Assembly (NCBI GenBank): GCA_036172245.1
Contig: JAYWIR010000007.1
Coordinates: 2,480,001 to 2,544,000 of the forward strand
DNA from: Raillietiella orientalis
Lineage: Eukaryota
DNA: 64,000 nt
Direction: 5' to 3'
Shown: positions 1,804 through 61,500 of the stretch, in pieces
Numbering within the stretch: the first letter of the stretch is position 1
How the letters are laid out: the number at the start of each line of letters is the position of its first letter
The notes under the pieces: generated by a model
What the model saw: only the letters and a program-made list of their open reading frames with translations
Databases searched by the model: none
What the model was told of the DNA's origin: nothing
Translations under genes and position numbers: made by a program

Positions 1804-26855
<25,052 letters not shown>

Positions 26856-37056: not shown

Positions 37057-38831
37057 TCAATTCAATGTACGTTGAAGCTCTTTAATGATAAGTTCTATTA
37101 CTTTTGGGGTAGTCATGGCATTGGCTAAATGTTTTAGGAAAGACTCATATTCTAATGTATTCATATATGTATATCTAGAATCAGTGAGTGAGTCAAAAGT
37201 AAACTCTTTCAAAGAATAAGGAATTAAAAGCTTCCGATCCATTGGTGTGTGTACACCATTGCACTTAAGAAATGATTGCCACACAAATTGCAGAAATTGT
37301 TCAGTCTTGTAAGGTTCCAGAATCTATTGAAAAAAAACATTCCATTGAAACCATTAAAACTAATATTTTTAACAATTCATTTCATATATGCAAAACACCT
37401 AACCTGTCTATCATTTATCAAGCTTTGATGATGTTTAAATAATCCTCCCATCAATAATTGTACAATAGATTCCTCTAGGCGACTGCTGTCATCCTCATGC
37501 TGTTCAGAGCATCAAAATTTAATTCAGATTTGACATTGCATACAACCATTTCTATCCAAGTGTTCACACTAATGGATGTCTCCAGATTCTCAACAAAATG
37601 CCACCAATGATTTGGAACTAATAGCACTTCCCCTGGATTCAGGATGTAAATATATGGAGTAGTTGATTTCAGTGTCTCCTTTAGAACAAATATTGAAGAA
37701 GAAGTTAGATGAAATAGTTTTAATTCACTAAAAACACTTGACTCTTCATAGGGAACACGAGTTGGGTAAAGAAAATTGCTTTGTGATGGAGGAAATAAAA
37801 TCCAACGCTTCCTGAATTATCAAAAGCAATAAATAAACAGTTATTGAGATCATTTACCTGCCATACAACTGTGCAACCAAATTACAACCATATGTATCAT
37901 AATGACCTGGCGTAAATGCCCCTGGACTTCCGATCCAAATGGTTGTGCTTTTTCCTTTCCTATCATGCAGTCCTAACTCTCCCCATTCAAATATCTAGTG
38001 TACAATTTTTAGCTGATGTCACTAAATTGTTCCAACAGTTCCTCATACATCAAGTTTACCTGAATCCTTTTCAAATATCTGTTCCATATGCTGATAGGAG
38101 CTATAGCACCACTCACGCCTCTCACTCTGTTTAACCCACTTATGAAACTCTTTCATGGTCATGTGAATAGTCTTTCTTCCATTTTCCCAATCTTCTGGAC
38201 TCATCCTCAAATCTACCTACAACAAACATTGCATCACATTCTAAACTTAGTTATGTTTACCTACAATTAAAGTGCACTTCTGTTAATTTATAGTTCCAAA
38301 GCATTATTGTGCTTACATATAAGTTTAAGAGAACAAATTACATATGAATCAACTAATTAGGAGAAAAAAAGGCAGATCCTACAACTTGGCTAATATCACT
38401 CTTTGCAAATGGTGTGAAGTAGCTATCATGTGTTAAGGAATGCCGTCACTCATCATCGTTACCCTGAATAGTTGGAATCAAATTGTTAGAGCGGTCGAAA
38501 TATAACAAGCCTGAATGCTATATTCTGGTAATATCAGCAATGTAATAGTTTTCCAAAATAAATGACGCAATATTCAAATGTTTTTCAACAACATTTTTCT
38601 CAATACGGTACTAAGTGATGACTGGTACTATCTGATGACAGATTAAAAGTCATAAAATTGCATAAGGCTTACATTATCTGTAATTCTCCCAGTTTGAAAA
38701 GGTAATTTCTTGGCGCCAAAATAGTCAATCCACAATTCCATGGACCAGATCCGACATGTCCAATTATCTATTTGATTTTCAAAAACTATGGGTGTTTTGA
38801 TCGTTTCTGCTGCAAATCCTGCTACATTCAT
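37057..38831 (-). CDS. HSPBAP1: JmjC-domain protein, HSPB1-associated protein 1 homolog; 6 exons, ~363 aa
   Basis: Exons 38831-38673, 38216-38049, 37994-37858, 37811-37547 (or 37544), 37499-37404 and 37323-37057 are in phase. Peptides TIWIGSPGAFTPGHYDTYGCNLVAQLYGRKRWILFPP, LYPTRVPYEESSVFS and LNPGEVLLVPNHWWHFVE..SVNTWIE match HSPBAP1. The Fe(II) HxD...H triad is intact. Confidence 0.92.
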
Positions 38832-41800: not shown

Positions 41801-43999
41801 CCTTTTTTGATTTTCCACACAAGCATTTCGGTCTCCATTTTCTATTTTTATTTCATCTTTGGTCACTGAATTTCGCATTGGTTTCTGTCCTAAAGATTCA
41901 TGGACACCAAAGATTGCTTGGGTACCATGTCGCCTTCTAAAAAGCTCATCTTTGGCGAGGGATGTTGGAATCATGTTAGCATCGCCGTCAACACTTGCGA
42001 TCTGTTGATGAATTCTTTCCATAATATGTTGCGTTACTGTTACATCACATGTAGTTTGCCTTTGTTGAAGAACTCTGTGCACTTCACCACCGTCACTCAA
42101 TCATTTTGTGGTCACACGCTGTTTCTTTTATTTTTCGGTGATCATGTTTTCAAAGGGAACAACAGAAAAAATTGTCTTCATGCAAAGAATTTTTGTCGAT
42201 AGATGGCTACAAGTGCTGTATCTGTAATAAGCATGTGGTCCTTATCAGGATAGCAAAACTACTCTTTCATTCTTTCATCTCAGTGAAGTGCATTGTGATC
42301 AAGCAGCTTGCCTCCGACCAGAATGGAAGGAAAGGTTTTGTGAACACTTTGTTTCTTCTTTTAGCATTTTTTAAAAATGCCAAAAGAAGAAACATTTAGC
42401 ATTTTTGAAAAAATAAAATCTCCTCGTGCCTAATATCCTTATGGACTGCTCTATGAAACGAGTTTGGTAGGCGCAACCATCTTGATTTTAGGTCCATCCA
42501 CAAGGATGAATCCATGATTTATTTATCAACATAGTTGTTGAGAGTGCCTGTAAAGATAAGCATTTGAGAAATCACCTTTGGATTCCGCGATCGACCTATC
42601 GATTCGGAAGAGAAAATTGTTTTAGATTTCAGGAGGCTCCAGGAGTTCCTTAGTATGCTGGTGCAAGCTTGCAGAAGTCTAGAGTTGGTAGAGTTAGAAG
42701 AATATCAGGAATGAGGTGTCATCTCCATTTCAGGGTCGAAGAATGATGCAAGACTGAATGAAAGAAGGAAAGACTCTGTGCTTAATGACAGGCATTTAAG
42801 CGATGTCGGAGAAAGGATGACAGCCTGGAGCGCAGAGATATGTGAGATCTCTTACAATTAAATTAATTTTGCTTTTATATCAGGTTAACAAGATCCAAAA
42901 TATAGAATGTCATCGGAAAGCTAAGGTGGAATCTAATGCCATCTTTTCCCCGATTTCAGGAAACTAAAAGCGCTGCATTTCCATCGGTTTACCACCACAA
43001 TTGATTTGACTGATTTAATTCAAAGCTGTAAATTAATGGAGTGCAAAGTGATGGAGTGTTTTTCAGTTTCCATTTCACATAAAGAGAAAAAAAAAAGAGC
43101 AGAATGTTCTGTAAAAGCCCTCTTACTGAAGACACGGTTTGATCATTTTGGTCAAGAATAGAGGAGGATGCGGACGACCCACCAATTTGTCCCTCAGTTG
43201 TGTTGGACTATGCTTCCTTCGAGTAAAAACACTTTTTATGGGATGTATTTTTTAGTTGTGTAGGAAAATCCCACATTACCCTGATGCAACGGTGTCTGTT
43301 CTGACTGACATATTTCCTAAAGGAAGGCTGAGTGATTGCGAGAGCGCTGGTCACGCAGGTTTTTCGCTGAAAGTTCGATAAAAGGGTGCCTAGCTGACGC
43401 CCTATGCTTCCGGTAAACACAGGAAGCTGGGGATAACGGGGATGTGGTTTGTGCTGCCATTATTTGAAGTAGAATGCTAAATAACCGTGGCCAACGCAGT
43501 CTCGTCTCACCACCTACTCAGAAGCAGCAAATAAAGAGAAGGAATGCCAGATAGCCTTCGGTGCTCGGGAGGCCGAAAATGTGTGTGTGTGTCTTAAATA
43601 AAGAAACACACATTGTTATCTCAGATAACATTTTATTGTTCTCACGGAAACTGTAGACACCTGAAGTGCCATTATTCACCCTACTTTTGCTATAAGGAGG
43701 ATTCTGGCAGCAGGTCTTAAGGGGTGCACTGTCTGCATCTGCTTGATCAATTTTTCAGTAGGATGCGATAAGAAAAAAAGAGCGAATGTAGGAAAATTCC
43801 GGAGACGAGGTGAAAAGAGCATGCGGACACTGATTTCCATTTGGAATGGAGCTGATCTGCCGACAATCTCCTCCCTTCTGGACGCAACTTCAAAAGCCCA
43901 CCATGGCGTGGATAAACAAATGTAGGCGATGAGTCCGGCTGCTGGACACGGCAGGAAAGCGAAGCAGGAAGGAGGAAACGGAGGCGGCGAGCACCGTGC

Positions 44000-44040
44000 G
44001 CAGTCTGAAGGTGCATTCGGGAGATGCACCTTCAGACTGC
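44000..44040. repeat. Perfect 17-bp inverted repeat, 7-nt loop
   Basis: GCAGTCTGAAGGTGCAT tcgggag ATGCACCTTCAGACTGC. Confidence 0.9.
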
Positions 44041-44416
44041 ACGGCACAAACCCAGTTGCATCGGTGACCTGACCAACGACATAGTTCGTGTTTGTTTCGT
44101 TTTTTTTTTTTTTTTTTTTTCTTACGAGTGCTTCTTCAGACGAGGACGGCCGAAGGGGCCAGTTGTTCCTGTGCGAGCGCGCAAAGTGACCTTGCAAGCA
44201 CTTGTCACGAGCCCGTCAAGGTTTTCGTAAGCAGAGTTCTCCCTGGAGCTCGAGTCAGTCATGCAAGGAAAAATGGGACAAGTGGACATAAGTTGCTTGC
44301 TCGGGGAGTAGCCGGGAGTCGCCCGGCATTGGGGGCGCTCGCGGTTGGAGCGGGCCGCGACCAATTAATGGAAGACGCCGAATGGGGTCTTTTTCACTCG
44401 AAGAGGCCACGGTTAC

Positions 44417-44448
44417 CATGGGAACGCTCGGAGAGAGCGTTTCCCACA
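44417..44448. promoter_or_regulatory. Candidate Su(H)/CSL paired site (SPS)
   Basis: CATGGGAA (44417-44424) + 16 nt + TTCCCACA (44441-44448), head-to-head; about 4.2 kb upstream of the NRARP start. Confidence 0.6.
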
Positions 44449-46880
44449 AGAATAGTTTGTCGAAGCTCCCGAGTGGAATTTGAGAAGAATCTGACGCGAG
44501 AAGAACTCCCGTTGCCTTGTCGCATCCACGAACGCGGAGTGATCGCTTTGGGGAAACAGGGAGACAGAGAGAGTATCAGGCGATACGACGGGCCAGGTAA
44601 CGGATGCACGGCAGTCGCGATGGACTCCGCGTCCTCGAGTTTGCATTTTACGCTTCCTTTTAGAGACGGTTCGACGTCGTCGGCGGGGGGGTTCGGTCAA
44701 ACGCGTGCAGTCAACGCAACGAAAGAAACGGGGGGGGAACGCCAGCTACGTCGCCCGACCCGAGTCTTCGCCCCATTCTGCAAAGTTTCCCCCTCGCGGA
44801 GGTAACTTCGTCACAAGAGCATGCTCGCCCCATGCCTCTGCCCGCCCGCACAGCGAGCATGCGAACCGCGCCCTGCGGCGATTCGCTCGCATTCAGCCAG
44901 TGCGAAGCTTCGCTGCCGGCAGGGGGCTGGCCGAGCGCGCCGAAACGCTGCTGACCTTTTCGCGCATGCGGAGAACCGGTGCACCTCTGCCCTCCCGCAC
45001 ACGACGTGTTCCCCCAGGCTCTGTCTGCAGGAAGTTGAGCGTGCAGGAGCCAGGCAGCGTGCTCCAGTTGTGCTGATGACCAGTACCAGATTTCTGACGA
45101 GCGGGGAAATCTGGAAGCCGGTCTAAAGAATGCCTCTCTCCCGGGAGACGGACGGGAAGATCCCCCCTCTTTCCCCACGACATCGGGAACCTCACTCCCA
45201 TTTCTGCATGTCGTGAAACGATTTGTGGGAATCTGACGTACTCGATCCAGTGAACCGTATCCACCTTCCAAAATCACTCTGTCGGTAACTCTGCAGGCTA
45301 ATCACTCATACAGACTCCGTTGATCACGTTCACAAACGTATCATATGTTCGAACCTCATTTCTGATTTACGTGGTGAAACGAACCCGACTTGGATAGCGT
45401 CCCTGAATTCCGCGAGGTGTGCTTTTCGACGCAGTTTCCTGTGGATGGACCCTGGTTCATCGCGACAATTTCCGAAAATGGGCAGTACGAATGCAACTGT
45501 TCCTATCTGCGCAGTGGGCTCCACCGGAGTTTCCCTGCAAAGTCACTGACTGGCATCCGCATGATTTCTCGAGGGGTCCATGGAAACAGTTTAGGCGGCC
45601 CCAGCTGTAATCATCAGTTCCCACCTTAATTCAGGATACTTTCCTCGAAAACAGGCGTGGTGGTCAGCATAGGAAGCGTTCGGGATTTATTTTCAGGGGA
45701 AGCATCATCACAATCAAGTGGTCAATTTAAGCCTTGAGAAATTAATACTCACTTTATCACTGAAAAACACGGAGGAGCGTATACGATTACGAAGCAAAAT
45801 GCTCCCATTTCAAGAAAAAAACCATAAATTTCACCAGTGAGCGCATTATAATGCAATGCTTTCAGTAAAATTCTCTAGATCTGAATTTGCTTTCATGTGA
45901 AATTCATGACCAGCCATCCTTTTAGCAATTTCATCAGCTATTTACATTATTCTTGTTTACAGATTCAACACGCATGCGTTCTCCTCAAAGGACTCTGCAA
46001 GACAAAAACAAAAACAACGTTGTTTTACTTGCAATTAACACATATTTGGCTCACATTCCAGTAGCCACGTAAGGATTTGTTGACAAGGTTCAGACCAAGT
46101 GGGTGTTGACAACCGCTACACCCCCACGTAGAAAATGGGGCAAAGAGAGTGAGAACGACACATACGTGTGCGGTGCACGAGAGACGCACGACGTACACGC
46201 ATGTACACTCATGGCGGGTTGGTGGCAGCAGCTTTTCGCTCTGGACCCCACGAAGCACACCTTCCTCTCTTTTTGCACATGCATGCCAGAAGATCCCAAG
46301 AAAGGAAATGACCTCTTCCGTATACCAAAGCGTACGCACCACCGCCTGTTCGTACGCCTCGTACCACGCAAAGCAGGGCAAGCAAACAAAATATAGATGC
46401 GTTGAAAGAAATGCAGTCGCATCTTTCCCCGCTCGAGATGCCAAAAAACTTTCAGGACCCAGGGCGCGCAGATTTATGGAGCATCAATTTGTTGCACGTG
46501 ACGGAGGGGGGAAAAAAAAAAAAAAAAGAAAGGAAAGAAGGCAAGCAATCGCGTTGCACGGAAAAAAAAAAAATGGTTTGTTTGTTTTGATTCGGAAAGC
46601 ACGGAGATGAATCCTAGAGTGAAGAACACGTGGACAGCTTCCCGGTCAGGCTAGGCTAATCGTAAAGGAGCACCTTGCTGCCCGCTGCACTGTAAACACT
46701 TTGAAGCCGTCCCGATAAAAGCCAAGAGCAGCAGCACATTTCCTCTTCTTCTTTTCCTTCTTCCGGCTTCGCCCGTCTTTCTCTTTTTTCGTTTCCCGAT
46801 CTTCGTGGTAAGAGGAGAGAGGTTGGCCCCCCAAATGAAAAGCGTTCTGGGAATTTAATAAAAGCTGAATGAAGAGGGAT

Positions 46881-47245
46881 TGTGAGAAAACCTGGATTAT
46901 TCTCACGCTGGTAAGTAATAAAATACGTTGTCGTGAGATGGGGCAAGAAAATTTCAGCAATCGTTAATTTGCAGTCGGGTAAAATTGGAATCGTTGTCTC
47001 TCCTTTGAAATCTCTCGCACACGCTGCGGAAAGGGAGGGAACGAAATCAGAAGGGAAACTTGGCGCAAACATCGGGCATCTAACGAATGTGTCGTTAACA
47101 GTCAACTGTAATTTGATAAAGACTTGACTCCAGGTAGCACGTCCCACATCTTTGGGAACCAACGCTTCATTGCGGGATGGGTTAGGTGGAATCTCTTTGA
47201 AAAGCGGTTCCCACGGAAATGACTCCATGTCAATGAGTTCTCACG
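46881..47245. promoter_or_regulatory. Cluster of four Su(H)/CSL consensus sites (candidate Notch-responsive enhancer)
   Basis: TGTGAGAA at 46881, TTCTCACG at 46900, TTCCCACG at 47208 and TTCTCACG at 47238; all match YGTGRGAA within 365 bp. Confidence 0.6.
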
Positions 47246-48656
47246 CATCCTTAAGTTTGAATTCTTCCAGAACACGACAGGGTTGATGTCGGTCCACACG
47301 TAGCTGGAGGTTGTTTTCCGATTTTGTTCCAAGAACGTTTTGGTCGATGCAGATCTCAGGACGCTGTCCATCCGTGCTGCATGGACGACGCCGCTTTCCC
47401 CCCAAGTGTGGACTCCACTTCGTGCTGCGCACATGTAAGTAGCGTGCTGGTCCGCTCGCGCGGGAGCTTGCGGGCTTGGGTGTGATTCGCGTTTCGCGCT
47501 GAACGGTTTCCTTGGGGATTTTTTTTGCCTCTGCTGCGCGCTGTTCCCTGACCGTGTCGGCGTCGCGGCGGTGACCGCCGGGGTGTCGTCGCAGGCAGCT
47601 GATGCCGGAATCTGGCATCCTGCTGTCTGGAGCCGGTTTAGCTCGCGGTTCGGAGATCTGGCGCTGCGGCGGCGGGCGGGGAGGACTGGATGGAGGGACC
47701 CCGCTCGGACTGCCCGCGGTTGGTCACCTGGGCAACGGCAGGTGCGAACGGAGGTCTCGTCGCCGCGGGTAGTTCGGTCTTCGCTTTCGTGCTCTATCTT
47801 TTCGAGTTCACGTCGGCACGCCAAAAGGACACCTCCCCGGCAACCCTTCCCCCCCCTCTTCCCCCCTCCCCCACCGATTGCTTAGAGAACCGTCCGACTT
47901 TCTTTTTTTTTTTTCCTGAGCTGCGGGGATCGCGGGCGGAGGGCCGGGCCGAGCCTGGCCGCGCGCGGTGCGAACGGCGCTCCCTGGCACCCCGCTTGCG
48001 TCCCCGCAGAATCCCCGACGTCCGGCGGCGGTGAGCTTAGCGTTGGAAATCGCGTTCCTCTTCCTCCCGGCTCGCTCCGGCTGACAGCGTGCGAACCGCG
48101 CACGGGGCGCGCACCTCTCTTCCTGTTGCGGCGCGGGCTCGAAAGAGGAGAGAGGGGAAAGCAAAAATCCTCGGTACGCGACCCTGGCGCAACGCCTAGA
48201 GGTGCCTGGGTCGGATGGCTCGGATTTCGCGCCACGGAGGCGCGCCAACAGCGACTGGTTTCGCGGCTCGCCGTCTCATCTCTTCGCTCGCGTCTTCGTC
48301 TTTTTTTTTTTTTTGCTTTTTTCGTTTCTTTTCTTCGCGGTGGGATTCCCCCCCACTCCGTCGTCTCCCGAGCAATGACGGGATGGGCTCTGGTGACCCC
48401 GTCGCCCGTGGCTGCCCCGCGCGAGATCCCCCAGGGCAAACCAGCGGTTCACCACCCGCTCATCTTCCTTGTCCGCCTCTTCCTGCAGGAAAGGGGCGTT
48501 TCGTTAGCTGCACACGGCTGTCTCCCGGCCCGGCTGCTGCCGATTGACGAAGAGGCGGCGACGGCAAGAAGGCCGGCCGGGACGACAGCGCGTCTTCCTC
48601 CCCCTGCGTCCCGGAGTAAACCGCCCATGCGGCTCCTGTGCTTCCAGAACCGCGCC

Positions 48657-49043
48657 ATGGACGCCGACTACGCGGCCGCCCAGGAAGGTCGAAGCGCCGC
48701 GGGCAAGGGGCAGGACAGATCCCTCCAGGAAGTGTTCCACTTCGCCGTGCGCGCCGAGGACTGCGCGCAGCTGCGGTTCCTCCTGGAGAAGAGGCGCGGC
48801 CTGGTCAACCTGGACCAGTCGGACAGGCAGGGGCAGACGGCGCTCACGCGGAGCTGCATCAGCGGGAACCTGGAGCTGGTCCGCCTGCTCGTCGCCAACG
48901 GCGCCGACGTGCAGCTCGCCAATCGCGAGGGCTGGCTGCCGCTGCACCTGGCGGCGTTCTCCGGCAACGTGGAGATCACCGCCTGCCTGATGAAGGCGAT
49001 CCTGCCCCCCCGCGAGGCGGTCCTCCCGGAGGGCCCCTGCTGA
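48657..49043 (+). CDS. NRARP: Notch-regulated ankyrin repeat protein homolog; intronless CDS, 128 aa (138 aa if the in-frame ATG at 48627 is used)
   Basis: LQEVFHFAVRAEDCAQLRFLL..VNLDQSDRQGQTALTRSCISGNLELVRLLVANGADVQLANREGWLPLHLAAFSGNVEI aligns along its length with vertebrate NRARP as recalled (QRIFQEAVRKGN..GQTALHQSVIDGNLELVKLLVKFGADIRLANRDGWSALHIAAFGG). Strong Kozak context gccATGG at 48657. AATAAA at 49098-49103. Confidence 0.85.
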   Translation: MDADYAAAQEGRSAAGKGQDRSLQEVFHFAVRAEDCAQLRFLLEKRRGLVNLDQSDRQGQTALTRSCISGNLELVRLLVANGADVQLANREGWLPLHLAAFSGNVEITACLMKAILPPREAVLPEGPC

Positions 49044-49049
49044 CGTCCA

Positions 49050-49077
49050 CCGCCGCCGCCGCCGCCGCCGCCGCCGC
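49050..49077 (+). repeat. (CCG)n microsatellite in the NRARP 3' UTR
   Basis: ccgccgccg... about 9 units between the stop codon and AATAAA. Confidence 0.9.
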
Positions 49078-52000
49078 AGCTCTCACGGGCGCCGTGCAAT
49101 AAAGGAAACGAGCGGACCAAGGTCAAAGGGGACGACCGGTCGGGGCGGAGCTCGGGAGGGGAGCGGAGGACGGGGCGGCGGGGGAAGACGGCGGCGGCTG
49201 AGAGGCGGCCGCCGCTCGAGGGGGATGTGGGGGGGGGACAGCCAGAGAGAACAGGAGGCGCTGGGACGGGACGGGGCGGGAGAGGTTGCGGGGCGGCGGG
49301 CGAGAAAGGGGCGATGCGAACGAATCGAAGGGGACGAAGGGCCCGAGGCAGCGAGCGGACCCGGAGAGGCGCTCGAATGAAGAGCAGCGCGGCAATCGGT
49401 AGTAACGAGTGGATGGGGAAAGGGGGGGGGGGGTCTGGAGGAAGGGATTTCCCTACGGCGATCCCGGCTGTCCAGCTCACCTCGAGGGCCGGCATGGGAG
49501 GACGGGAGGAGTAAGGAGACCGTCCTCCTAGGAAGGAAGGGGGGAGGGAGGGGCCGGTAGTCAGTCTGCTTCCGGCGCTTCCGGAAGTTCGCCATCCGCG
49601 GCAGGATGTCCTCCCCTCTCGGCTCTCTCTCTCGACCGCTTCGGGAGGAAGGGAACCCGTGGGAAGGCGTCCCCGCCCGAAGCCCGCCCGCCCGAATTTT
49701 CACGAATCTCCGGTTTCGATTTTCCCATTTGATTAGGGGAGGAGGGGGGGAGGGGAAGGGGCGGGAGTCGGTAAGACCCTTCCCCGCTTCCGCCCCTGTG
49801 TTCGGGGGAGCAGCGGCCGAATCCCGGGATGACCCTGGGTAGAGTGTCAAGAAAGGGGAAGAGGCTGCAGGGATCAGACTTCGTTCGGCGGGTGGCACGG
49901 CTCCCTCTCTCCGAAGAGAGGAGCTCACGCCCGGCGCTTTCACTCCGGCTTGCCTCCCGGTGCCGTGGCCAGGGAGACTGCCGGGTGTGGTGGAGGCGTT
50001 TTCGGTGGCAGAAGGGGTCCGCGACGGGTGGGTTGCCTCGATACGCACACTCCTTCCGAAGTGAGAGTGAGGAGGGAGATAGGGGAGCTGTCGCCGCGCC
50101 TGCGTGGGAAAAAAAACGGGTGGAGGGGAGGGTGCGGATGGCGGTTCACTGAGCGGCGCGGGTGGTCAGCAGGGGTACAGGGAGGGGAGGATAACCGCAG
50201 TCTCTCTGGCGATCCCCCTCTTTCCTAGAACTCCTTCGGATGCCTTTCCAGATTCCTCGGGGGGCACTCATCTTTGGGCTGGGAGTGCGGGTGGTCCGCG
50301 CCCTGCGTCTCACAGCGGGCTCGGAGGGAACTGGTGAAGAGGAGGAGAGGGGGGGGCATTTTGGGTCTGGACGGCGCCCATCTCGCCGCTGTCCTCCCTG
50401 AATTCGTTGTGGTTGCTGGACCACGACCGGCCCCGGCGCCGCCAGCGGGTACCTGGAGAGTCTTCCGGAGGATTCCTGGTCGGTCCGGGGGGCGGTTTCC
50501 GCGTATCGGCACGGAGGATCCCCTTCCGTGCCGTGACGCGAAAGTGAGGCACTTGGTGACGGGGAGGCGCAAGGGAGAGCGGACCGCCGCTTACCACAGG
50601 GGGGTGGGGGGGTGGACCCTCTGCGAGCAGCCCGCCGCGGGTCCACCTTCCCCTATCTCTCTGCTACGCTCTGCTCTGGGGCATCCGGGTCTCCTCAGAA
50701 ACACGTCTGGATGGATGTCGCGGGGAACGCAGGCGGCATAGGCTGCCGCCCATTCGGGAACGCGCGCCAACCGGAACGAATAGCTGAGATATCGAAGCTC
50801 TAAGCGACACCGCTGCCGCCGCCGAGATCTGACGACGGAGGAGGGCAGAGGGTAGAAGTGTCTGGAGCGTGAACACCCTGCCCTCATTGCTGGGTGAGCG
50901 GCAGGCTCAGGGACGCCTTGCCCCGGGTGCGGTAAGTTTCTCGCGGGAGGTGAGTTCCCGTCCTCTAGAAGGCGTAACGAAAGGAGACTCTTTCGGTCAC
51001 GCGCGTAACGCAGGGGTTCGTGAAGACGAACAGGCGGCGCGCAGTGGGATCCTTCATTAACGTTTTGGTTGCCGGGTGGCCCGTGAGATCTTCCTCCATC
51101 TAGGTGGCTCCTGTCAGCTTACTGCTTTCCTGGTCAGCCTGCCTCCCGCGTGTCTTGCCGGCTACCCCTGGAAGTGTGGAAATGCAGCAGAGAAACGAAG
51201 GAGTGGTTCGTTCTCGAAAGTTCCCATCAGCACGTTCCTTGAGCTTGTAGGTGCCTGCAGCTCGATCCGCCAGCCCCATTCGGACGAACCAGAGGAGACA
51301 CATTGGTTGAAACATCACGCTGCTTACACCCGGCCTCAAACAGAGCTCTTCCTTAGACATAGGCACACCACGTTTTGTTTTGTTTTTCTTGTGTTGCTGT
51401 GTGTGACATTTCGAGTTTTTATCACGTCTTTCCACCGATTTTCTCTCCCTTTCTGAGGGAAAGGCTGTCCGTCACGAGTCGGTTCCAACAAATTTTACGT
51501 GTGTCAGCAAATGTGTGGGGTTTCGGAGGTCAGTCAGTTTTCGAGTCGAGTGATTATCGCAACTATCAAGAGAAGTCATTTGTGGACCGTTTCCTCGTAG
51601 ATTCCAACATTCCGCACAGGGTGGGATGTCTGTCGGGCTACTGTTTTCAGAAAACTCAGATTTTTAATCTGCGTTCATTAATTAGCTGCTGCTCGGAACT
51701 TACAGCGTCATTGGGATGCACTTTTTCGGACACATTTCAGAAATTCTTAGGTAAACAAAGGACCAGTTCTCGGACAAGAAAGATGTTTCTCGTTCTGTTA
51801 CGCAAGGTCCTCATTTGAGGACCACTTGTCAAGAAAAGCATCAGTTTTTCAGAAAAGGTTTTCAGACCATACAAATGAGTTACATATGTCTAATGGTCAC
51901 AATTAAGCAGATTTTTGACTCAAAGAAAAAAAATTGCAATCTGTTTATTTTTTTTTTAAGTTAAAGTGCATGTAAACCATCAGAATCGAGAGGTGATGAA

Positions 52001-58594: not shown

Positions 58595-61500
58595 TCACAC
58601 TCCAGAAAATTTTCTGAATGTCTTCAGTGGCGGCGCTGAGACCTTGGCGAACTTCTTGCGCCGCAAGCGGGAATGAGACAGCATCTCGATTTTCCCCTCG
58701 CCGAAGAGGATGCACAGGCTCTCCAAGCCTAGGAAAACCACCTCCATGATGGATATGATGCTCCCACCTAGGGTGAGTCCGAGGATCCCTCCGATCTCGC
58801 CTGGAAAACGAGAAGAAAGAGACGCTTTCGCTCTCGCTCGCTGGCGGCAACGATGGGGGAAACGGGTAGAACAGGGGTGCGGAGGTCAGCATCCAAGGAA
58901 GTCCGCAGTCCGCTCAGGCTGGAGCGGGGGTCCAGGTCTCAAGGGGCTGTGTGCTCCCTGTTCTTGTCGCTTGCAGGGAGAGGTCGCGGAAGAGTAGCAA
59001 CAGGTAGGCGGGAGCAAAGATGAGTAAGGGGAAAAAAGAAGGCGATAAGGAGCTAGAGAAGGTGTAGGGTAGAAGAGCGGATTGTCGGTTATCCGATCGC
59101 TGACTGGGTTGCTAGCTGAGATGTCCGGGACAGCCTTCCGCGGAACGCTCCTGACCTACTTCAAGGACCTACTATACACCTGGAGCCAACGAGCATCTTC
59201 TCTCGGGTTACATGACCAGCCCTTCTGCCCCCGAGAGAGAAGCCAAACGGATTGGAGGTTGGAGGGGAGGCACCAGAAGTTCTGTTCCTCTGAAAGGACC
59301 ACTCGAAGATTCCGGAAGGAAAATCAATCCCAGAAATGACGCGTGTGGTTGCCTTGACTTTTCAGAGACTCCTGGTCCACACAGTGCCGATGCAGTGGCG
59401 CTGCCTTCCCAAGAGCTCCATCCCAAGGAGGAACTGGTCTTCCAGCAGGAGAACCTACTTGCTCGGGAGACAGGGGGAGAGAAAGAATGTCTTTGAAGAG
59501 CACAAGGAAGAGAGAACGGGAAGCAGGATGGAGGAGGAGAGAGACATCTGCAGACGTGAGTGGTATTCGTGCTCCTCAACGAACATGTGATAGGTTGGCG
59601 GCGTCTCAGGTGATCAGCAGAGGGATAACGTGCGTTCGAGCTCTGGCTAAGGCTACGAGAACAGTCCGGAACTCTCTTTACCTTCCCTCCTTCCCTCCCC
59701 TCGCTCGGGAGAAAGAGGAGGATGAGAGGAAAGTGACTTTATGCGGAGAAATCGACTACCTGGAGCTCTGGTCGAGTCCTTCGTGCTTTCCTCGCCTCCT
59801 CCCCACACCTCCCCGAGGGTGATGGGACCCGCGCGAAGTCGTTGTCTGCCCAGCCCCGGAGTTCACCTCAACATACTCTTCCCCGTTTCAATGGGTCCCT
59901 GGTTTCGAACTGATGGAGGAGAAGGCCGCTCTCATCCGAAGCAGTGAGTCGAAAGGGCATCAACAAGGCGAGCTATCAAAATGACGATGCGTGCGGCCGG
60001 AAAACTATCGCTTTTCCCGAGCCCAAGAACTAGCGAAGACGGGAGATGCCGGCATGGAGCGTCGCCCTCGAAGGCATCTCGAGAGCACAGCGTGGGGGAA
60101 GGGAGGAAGGGTGAGAAGGTCGAAACTTACTGAAAAACTTGGACAGCCGGAAATCCTGGGAGATGAACCTGTTCACCTGCAGCGCCGGGTACTGGAGGAC
60201 CACATCTATGACCTCTTCTCTGGAAGGCATGAAACAAAAATGTCGGTTGCTGAGCTACAGCGGGAGGAGGCACGATAAGAGAGAAGAAGGGATTCTCTGC
60301 CGGGAATCCCGGCCAGGCACCCTCCGCCTTTCTGGCAGATCCGCGCAAGGGAGTCTCCACCTGGAGGCGTCGCTGCCTATCCAGCGCTCAGCCAGCTCGC
60401 GTTCCGACGTAGTTGGACTGCGTGGCTGGGAGCTGCGCGAGCAGACTCCGAGGACTCTGCGGCAGCTTCTCTCTGAACCGCGGGAGGAGAGGTGCGAGAG
60501 GCGGCGAATTCCCTCCTCCCACGCGCCGGATCCGCGTTCCTCGTTCCAAGAGCGTCGATCCAGGTGCAGAGGAACAGAGGACGCCTCTGTTCAGAAACGC
60601 TGCGGATCAACGAGAAGAGCGTTGGATTCCAGTCGATTCTGCCTCCCAGTGTCCCGAAAAGCGACCACCAAGGCCGGCCACGGTGCGTCTCGCACGCTCT
60701 GCATTCTTTTGCTTGAATCTCGGAAAGAGAAACAACAGAGGGTGCTGTGATGAGCCTTATGGTGATCGGATGGCAATTCCATGTATCGGGTCGGGTATGG
60801 ATCAGACAAGAAAAAAAAAGAAAAACCCTTCCTCAAGGGGAGGGGAATATCAAGGGTGCTCTGCCTATCCTGTGGACTCCGCTTAACGACGAAAAAACAG
60901 CCGGTCTGTAGAAGGTGAGGAAGATCAACTCGGTTCCGTCTTCCAGATCGGTCGGAGAAACCGGAAGTCCGATCATCAGCATACGTGCTCAGAAGAGTCT
61001 ACACTTCAGGTCACAAGGCGCACGCTTGTTCGTGGGCCGACATCAGATAGAAATCCTCCTGGATTCTTCTGTTTTCGCTGCTTCCTTCAAGCTTATTCCG
61101 TTTTCTCTTTTTTCTGGTTTTCCTTTTTCTGATTCCCAAAGTTCTGAAGAACCGTTAGCCTCCTCAGAGGGAGCTCACACTGCCCACGCTACTAGAGGGT
61201 GGGCATCGTCCCTTCCGCATGTCTTCCGCAGCGTTTCCAGCTGCTATCCTGCATCCTCTGGATGCTCGGTTTGAAGAAGGGGCGGTTCCTTTTCTTCGAG
61301 AAGCTGGAGCGTCGTTTCAGCTCCGAAGCATCGAGCTGCGGAGCTTCTCGCGTGTGGAGAACCTCGGCAAGAACTTCGACGTGAGCCTGAGCTTCGTCAA
61401 TTCAGACGAGGAGGAGTCTAGGACCCAGGGGAAGAATCAGGAAGGAGAAGAAAGAATTTTTCAGGGGGCCAATCGCTCCCACGCCATCGAAAACGGTGGA

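Follow-up and report, generated by a model that had tools for sequence, protein, structure and literature searches.

Vertebrate NRARP is a direct, canonical target of Notch (PMC7529455) and also a feedback inhibitor of the pathway (10.1101/645937), and in the mouse presomitic mesoderm Nrarp belongs to the cyclic Notch targets (PMC10859470). Among protostomes, Nrarp expression in the annelid Platynereis is abolished by gamma-secretase inhibitors (PMC5356439, PMC13172424), and the sequence of a tick (Ixodes) NRARP already appears in the supplement to Gazave et al. 2017 (PMC5356439). In this study, we analysed a 64-kb stretch of the Raillietiella orientalis genome (GenBank assembly GCA_036172245.1, contig JAYWIR010000007.1, positions 2,480,001 to 2,544,000; referred to as the window, from whose first letter all coordinates are counted), in which a gene for a 128-amino-acid (aa) ankyrin-repeat protein is surrounded by ten CSL/Su(H) motifs. 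On sequence grounds, we lean towards the view that this gene is an NRARP orthologue inside a homotypic motif cluster and that it is wired as a negative feedback of Notch.

Among the papers listed by literature searches covering Nrarp in invertebrates, arthropods and insects as well as promoter RBPJ sites, none was concerned in its title or abstract with the NRARP locus of an arthropod or with Su(H) sites there, and none of those listed for named invertebrate genera contained the word Nrarp. To our knowledge, Drosophila has no Nrarp. The printed set of eight Nrarp sequences, which is free of insects, fits such an absence, Tribolium being present in other trees of the same figure (PMC5356439).

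Enrichment of Su(H)/CSL motifs around the ankyrin gene

Exact matches to YGTGRGAA were searched on both strands of the window, and nine were found between 43639 and 50110 (6472 bp, referred to as the region), together with a tenth, non-consensus motif (CATGGGAA). All ten coordinates given by the first-pass annotation were exact on re-search, and its by-eye figure of roughly ten further sites elsewhere had the right order, the exact count being 12 across the remaining 57.5 kb and 21 for the whole window. Relative to the coding sequence (CDS) of the ankyrin protein, the motifs form a distal group of four at 3.4–5.0 kb 5' of the ATG (43639(-), the 44417(+)/44441(-) pair, and 45224(+)), a proximal group of four at 1.4–1.8 kb 5' of the ATG (the 46881(+)/46900(-) pair, 47208(-), and 47238(-)), and a downstream group of two at 0.6–1.1 kb 3' of the stop codon (49658(+) and 50103(+)).

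The excess of motifs is genuine, and it is specific for the CSL consensus. A chance or compositional origin in a GC-rich, purine-rich block was considered, as GC-rich and AT-rich blocks alternate along the sequence and GGGAA-like low-complexity runs occur at 49.2–49.8 kb; shuffles that preserve composition, however, never reached the observed count. The region contained on average 0.95 sites after dinucleotide shuffling vs. 9 observed (at least 9 in 0/2000 shuffles) and 0.90 when shuffling was confined to blocks of 500 bp so as to preserve the local GC mosaic (at least 9 in 0/1000), and a scan statistic (maximum count per 6472-bp span across the window, 1-kb block shuffles) gave a mean of 3.1 and a maximum of 7 (at least 9 in 0/300). 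For the window as a whole, 21 sites stand against 10.68 ± 3.02 in dinucleotide shuffles (at least 21 in 0/100). The first-pass annotation had proposed a motif scan against a composition-matched shuffled background as a check, and the outcome is a clear excess (9 vs. approximately 0.9 expected).

The same result was obtained with controls taken from the sequence itself and from other patterns. Outside the region, 23 one-kb bins with a GC content of at least 0.48 hold 5 sites, a density at which the region would contain 1.4 (Poisson P = 1.7e-5; conditional binomial P = 8e-4); in terms of density, the region has 1.4 sites per kb vs. 0.22 per kb in the other GC-rich bins of the window. Furthermore, 7 of the 9 strict sites sit in bins with 44–53% GC, outside the most GC-rich part. 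Among letter-permuted patterns (n = 3360), the true motif ranks first and is alone at 9 (mean 0.61, runners-up 6), and of the five runner-up patterns, with 6 sites each, three either differ from the motif by one letter or represent it in shifted form. No enrichment in 43–51 kb was seen for control motifs (E-box, N-box, class B/C, GAAAGT, and Grainyhead-like), whose density ratios were 0.5–1.2. Against these results, an artefact of composition is scarcely credible. A spread of motif copies by a repeat was rejected because the flanking sequences of the nine sites all differ and no repeat family covers them, the repeat finders having returned only homopolymer, low-complexity, and CCG repeats, none of which overlaps a site.

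The encoded protein and its relation to NRARP

The open reading frame (ORF) of 128 aa reported by the first-pass annotation is present in the region (Table 1), with a GC content of 71% and of 95% at third codon positions (GC3). Ankyrin families are the only Pfam matches of its product (Ank_2, E = 2.3e-24), and a structure model obtained with AlphaFold2 from a 13-row alignment (predicted local distance difference test, pLDDT, 87.2) contains the helix pairs 23–32/36–45, 62–69/72–80, and 95–101/105–115, equivalent to three repeats. A single-sequence model was poor (pLDDT 47) and was set aside in favour of the alignment-based one.

The protein was compared with the eight Nrarp sequences (Homo, Saccoglossus, Ixodes, Platynereis, Capitella, Helobdella, Crassostrea, and Nematostella) printed and aligned in supplement file 6 of PMC5356439; identities to these were counted by eye on the 91-column alignment and not computed by a tool. 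Residues 22–112 fit all 91 columns without gaps (by eye), including the atypical N-terminal cap repeat, with 43/91 residues identical to Ixodes NRARP and 42/91 to human NRARP by the same count, vs. 27–38% identity to designed and natural ankyrin proteins in the Foldseek alignments. Regular expressions located the signature motifs GQTAL at residue 59, GNLELV at residue 70, and LANREGW at residue 87, and all three (the last as LANR[DE]GW) are in register with the printed Homo, Saccoglossus, and Ixodes sequences. Among 1881 repeats of 162 other ankyrin proteins that were fetched, NR[DE]GW does not occur and LANR occurs five times. The length of 128 aa lies within the 101–139 aa of the complete printed NRARPs, and the three ankyrin repeats of the predicted model equal the number in human NRARP, which adds three ankyrin repeats to the NOTCH1 ankyrin stack (10.1101/645937). 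In addition, W93 and A100 align by eye with W85 and A92 of the human protein, whose mutants W85E and W85E/A92W do not enter the NOTCH1-RBPJ complex (10.1101/645937). The NRARP identification of the first-pass annotation stands up: the 128-aa protein has the length, the number of repeats, the signature motifs, and the interface residues of an NRARP, and it is very probably a divergent NRARP orthologue.

Several observations on the protein weigh against this identification and thereby against a Notch feedback. Its identity to the tick and human proteins (46–47%) is far below that between tick and human (65/91, by eye), tryptophan is common at the position of W93 (275/1881 ankyrin repeats), and none of the similarity searches led to an NRARP. 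The word-indexed protein search returned 12 weak metagenome ankyrin matches without an NRARP, and nothing when residues 22–113 were used alone; the 150 matches listed by the exhaustive search of representatives comprised only giant multi-repeat ankyrin proteins and no NRARP; designed ankyrin proteins dominated the matches of the PDB sequence search and of Foldseek; and the N-terminal 70 aa, compared with the PDB at E ≤ 1, matched no NRARP chain but only TRPA1 (E = 0.84). Beyond these, an exact look-up of three alternative-start versions of the protein found no match in the collection, a metagenome locus scan gave no NRARP but two generic ankyrin loci (29% and 42% identity), which were not used, and a wide structural search matched 6PY8 through its NOTCH1 chain only, which is uninformative either way. 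The alanine at A100 is the ankyrin consensus and thus a weak discriminator.

Alternatively, a different small ankyrin-repeat protein may have converged on NRARP-like motifs, in which case the NRARP feedback would be void. Such a convergence would be in line with the general ankyrin families found by Pfam, with the Atlas clusters that were matched, which are other ankyrins (ANKS3, ANKRD39, and a fragment of ANKRD11), with the N-terminal part lacking an NRARP chain in the PDB, and with the modest identity, counted by eye, to the printed NRARPs. It is difficult to reconcile, however, with a gapless fit that extends through the atypical cap repeat, with three signature motifs in register, one of which has no counterpart in the other ankyrin repeats, and with the size and three-repeat build of an NRARP, and the GC3 of the gene offers a reason for fast amino-acid divergence. 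We consider convergence distinctly improbable. The protein is better described as a fast-evolving NRARP member, since tick and human NRARP share 65/91 residues; GC-biased evolution may explain part of its divergence. By eye, it differs from both the tick and the human protein at many positions where those two agree.

Probable target gene of the cluster and its surroundings

In the proposed mechanism, which is that of vertebrates and the most likely one here, Su(H) would occupy the cluster sites in the absence of a signal. Once Notch is cleaved, the Notch intracellular domain (NICD) would assemble with Su(H) and Mastermind on these sites and switch on the NRARP-like gene, whose ankyrin product would stack onto the NICD ankyrin domain within the NICD-CSL complex, so that the signal would be damped in a negative loop. 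The first-pass annotation had described this feedback loop as wired here. The motif cluster and the NRARP features behind that description hold; the wiring itself (i.e., Su(H) occupancy, Notch inducibility, the promoter that is served, and the inhibitory activity of the protein) is what we infer from the motifs and the protein sequence.

No recognisable gene other than the NRARP-like one lies inside the cluster. Pfam scans covered 144 ORFs of at least 75 aa (approximately 27.5–64 kb), 82 minus-strand ORFs, mostly short (28.5–44.3 kb), and 91 short ORFs in 42.5–47.7 and 49.1–52.5 kb, and the ankyrin ORF was the only family match at or above the Pfam cut-off between 37.8 and 58.6 kb. A hidden Hes or other basic helix-loop-helix (bHLH) gene as the true target was rejected, as no HLH match was found among ORFs of at least 36 aa in 42.5–47.7 and 49.1–52.5 kb; the other ORFs scanned were free of HLH domains, too.

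The Su(H) cluster could also be real without making the ankyrin gene part of a Notch-induced feedback, either because some or all of its sites serve the opposite-strand JmjC/Cupin_8 gene or a distant one, or because they mainly mediate silencing by Su(H) and co-repressors. The JmjC/Cupin_8 exon lies on the minus strand (Table 1), so the 5' end of its gene points toward the cluster; further exons or a promoter of this gene were not found among the 82 minus-strand ORFs of 28.5–44.3 kb. The distal sites (43639–45231) have a GC- and CpG-rich block of their own (44.0–45.5 kb), which an AT-richer stretch parts from the NRARP block. On the other hand, 6 of the 10 motifs are within 1.8 kb of the ankyrin CDS, on both sides of it, the cluster is centred on this CDS, and vertebrate NRARP is itself a canonical Notch target. 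We know of no report of JmjC/Cupin_8 hydroxylase genes as Notch targets, although no search was aimed at such reports. A target other than the ankyrin gene, or a mainly silencing role, appears unlikely.

Some features of the cluster speak against the Notch-NRARP feedback that we favour. In the E(spl) enhancers of Drosophila, Su(H) sites are often joined by proneural E-boxes and Hes sites, and no enrichment of E-boxes or Hes sites was found beside the Su(H) sites in 43–51 kb. Three to four distal sites, being in the separate GC-rich block, could belong to the JmjC/Cupin_8 gene. The paired arrangements are also imperfect. In a sequence-paired site, two sites are arranged head-to-head and separated by 16 bp in the crystal-structure model or by 15–17 bp in vitro (PMC7685452). 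Within the window, only the 44417/44441 pair has this arrangement with the canonical 16 bp, but one of its halves (CATGGGAA) is mismatched. It is only suggestive of a paired Su(H) site, because shuffles in which the strict sites were held fixed create a 16-bp pair in 35 of 1000 cases (P ~0.035). The inverted 46881/46900 pair has an 11-bp spacer, a distance without cooperativity in reporter assays (PMC7685452).

Regarding the structure of the NRARP-like gene, the only AATAAA between the stop codon and 51 kb is a candidate polyadenylation signal (Table 1); if it acts as such, the sites at 49658 and 50103 are outside the transcript. GTAAGT donor-like motifs occur at 46911 (46908–46916, immediately after the Su(H) site at 46900) and at 47435–47441, and a polypyrimidine-CAG acceptor-like motif at approximately 48480–48489; an untranslated 5' exon, perhaps ending at 46910, and an intron may be part of this gene. 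Vertebrate NRARP is not known to contain introns. Past the stop codon lies a (CCG)9 repeat (49050–49077). Many long overlapping ORFs are present on both strands of 47886–49699 (e.g., 385 codons on the plus strand, in the NRARP frame, and 343 codons on the minus strand), as stop codons are scarce at 63–73% GC; apart from the ankyrin part, they had no Pfam match.

A run of approximately 20 T (44101–44121) and one of approximately 16 A (46512–46528) bracket 2.4 kb of the upstream sequence as an inverted pair, and a sub-threshold match to DUF4219, a retrotransposon-associated family, lies within this bracket (45407–45607; 21.9 bits vs. a cut-off of 27); the bracketed stretch may be an old insertion. 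Farther away, the ORFs 7774–8532(-) and 26168–26731(-) resemble by eye parts of an ATG16-like gene, namely its WD-repeat and coiled-coil exons, and a PAN/ZP (cuticlin-like) exon of 506 open codons, 19441–20961(+), lies between the two. The nearest Atlas clusters of this exon (PAN/CUT_N) are arthropod-dominated (score 0.97), which suggests that the genome is that of a probable arthropod, and a cuticle-protein gene may be nested in an intron of the ATG16-like autophagy gene. Rfam had no matches in the window.

Table 1 Features of the ankyrin gene, the motif cluster around it and the nearest recognisable exons, in window coordinates
Feature	Position	Strand	Remarks
Cupin_8/JmjC hydroxylase exon, C-terminal part of the domain	37478-37816	-	Pfam E = 9.7e-17
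Su(H)/CSL consensus site CGTGAGAA	43639..43646	-	most distal, 5.0 kb 5' of the ATG
Paired-site candidate: CATGGGAA (+), 16-bp spacer, TGTGGGAA (-)	44417..44448	.	head-to-head, with a palindromic spacer
Su(H)/CSL consensus site TGTGGGAA	45224..45231	+	exact match
Inverted pair: TGTGAGAA (+) / CGTGAGAA (-)	46881..46907	.	head-to-head, 11-bp spacer
Su(H)/CSL consensus site CGTGGGAA, next base C	47208..47215	-	1.4 kb 5' of the ATG
Su(H)/CSL consensus site CGTGAGAA	47238..47245	-	30 bp from the 47208 site, same orientation
GC-rich block, presumed promoter and transcript region	47501..51000	.	composition: 63-73% GC (500-bp bins), CpG observed/expected 0.8-1.2; holds the CDS and the two downstream sites
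Single-ORF CDS, 128-aa NRARP-like protein with three ankyrin repeats	48657-49043 (stop included)	+	translation, Pfam
AATAAA, candidate polyadenylation signal	49098..49103	+	55 nt past the stop codon
Su(H)/CSL consensus site CGTGGGAA	49658..49665	+	0.6 kb 3' of the stop codon
Su(H)/CSL consensus site CGTGGGAA, followed by an A-run	50103..50110	+	1.1 kb 3' of the stop codon
Amiloride-sensitive sodium channel (ASC/pickpocket), last exon, final 26 family positions	58598-58885	-	24.0 vs. 23.6 bits cut-off

Evolutionary meaning and comparison with known systems

Work on NRARP has centred almost exclusively on vertebrates, and an arthropod NRARP with a dense Su(H) cluster of its own would be cis-regulatory evidence, independent of the annelid inhibitor experiments, that the self-damping loop of Notch predates vertebrates. 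The first-pass annotation had gone further and spoken of an ancient bilaterian circuit. The locus is compatible with this, although the weight given to it was overstated, because the Notch-to-Nrarp link of a protostome (Platynereis) and the tick NRARP were already in print. What the locus adds is cis-regulatory evidence for a known circuit in one more lineage; it changes no principle. That a Notch-NRARP feedback including a Su(H) paired site of the dimer type was the ancestral bilaterian circuit, kept here while the gene was lost in insects, is a doubtful proposition. If it were true, arthropod NRARP might be Notch-pulsed in the segment-addition zone, as the cyclic Nrarp is in the vertebrate presomitic mesoderm, and NRARP would be a component common to the segmentation oscillators of arthropods and vertebrates. 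The ten sites, residue W93, and a lineage in which the loop would be paired with Notch-dependent segmentation offer concrete handles.

Compared with vertebrate NRARP (human; 6PY8, the NRARP-NOTCH1-RBPJ-DNA complex), the gene described here is likewise small, with a single ORF that encodes three ankyrin repeats only, and is likewise associated with CSL motifs. It differs in its identity of approximately 46% over the 91-column core (by eye), in the extensions of 21 residues at the N terminus and 15 at the C terminus beyond the printed alignment, and in the extreme GC richness of its CDS at third codon positions. Ixodes NRARP represents this family in an arthropod, aligns gaplessly to residues 22–112 and shares the signature motifs; with 65/91 identical residues vs. 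43/91 (both by eye), however, the tick protein is far nearer to the human one than to the 128-aa protein.

With respect to regulation, the E(spl)/Hes genes and their sequence-paired sites provide the other point of reference. The target proposed here would encode an inhibitor made of ankyrin repeats instead of a bHLH repressor, the pair is half non-consensus, and E-box and Hes-site enrichment is absent; the locus shares with these genes multiple YGTGRGAA motifs within a few kilobases, and one head-to-head pair, a candidate only, has the 16-bp spacer. Pdu-Nrarp of Platynereis dumerilii is a protostome NRARP for which the evidence is of a different kind, namely expression and not cis-regulatory sequence, whereas motifs alone are available here, and its loss of expression under gamma-secretase inhibitors is the behaviour that we would predict for the gene of this locus.

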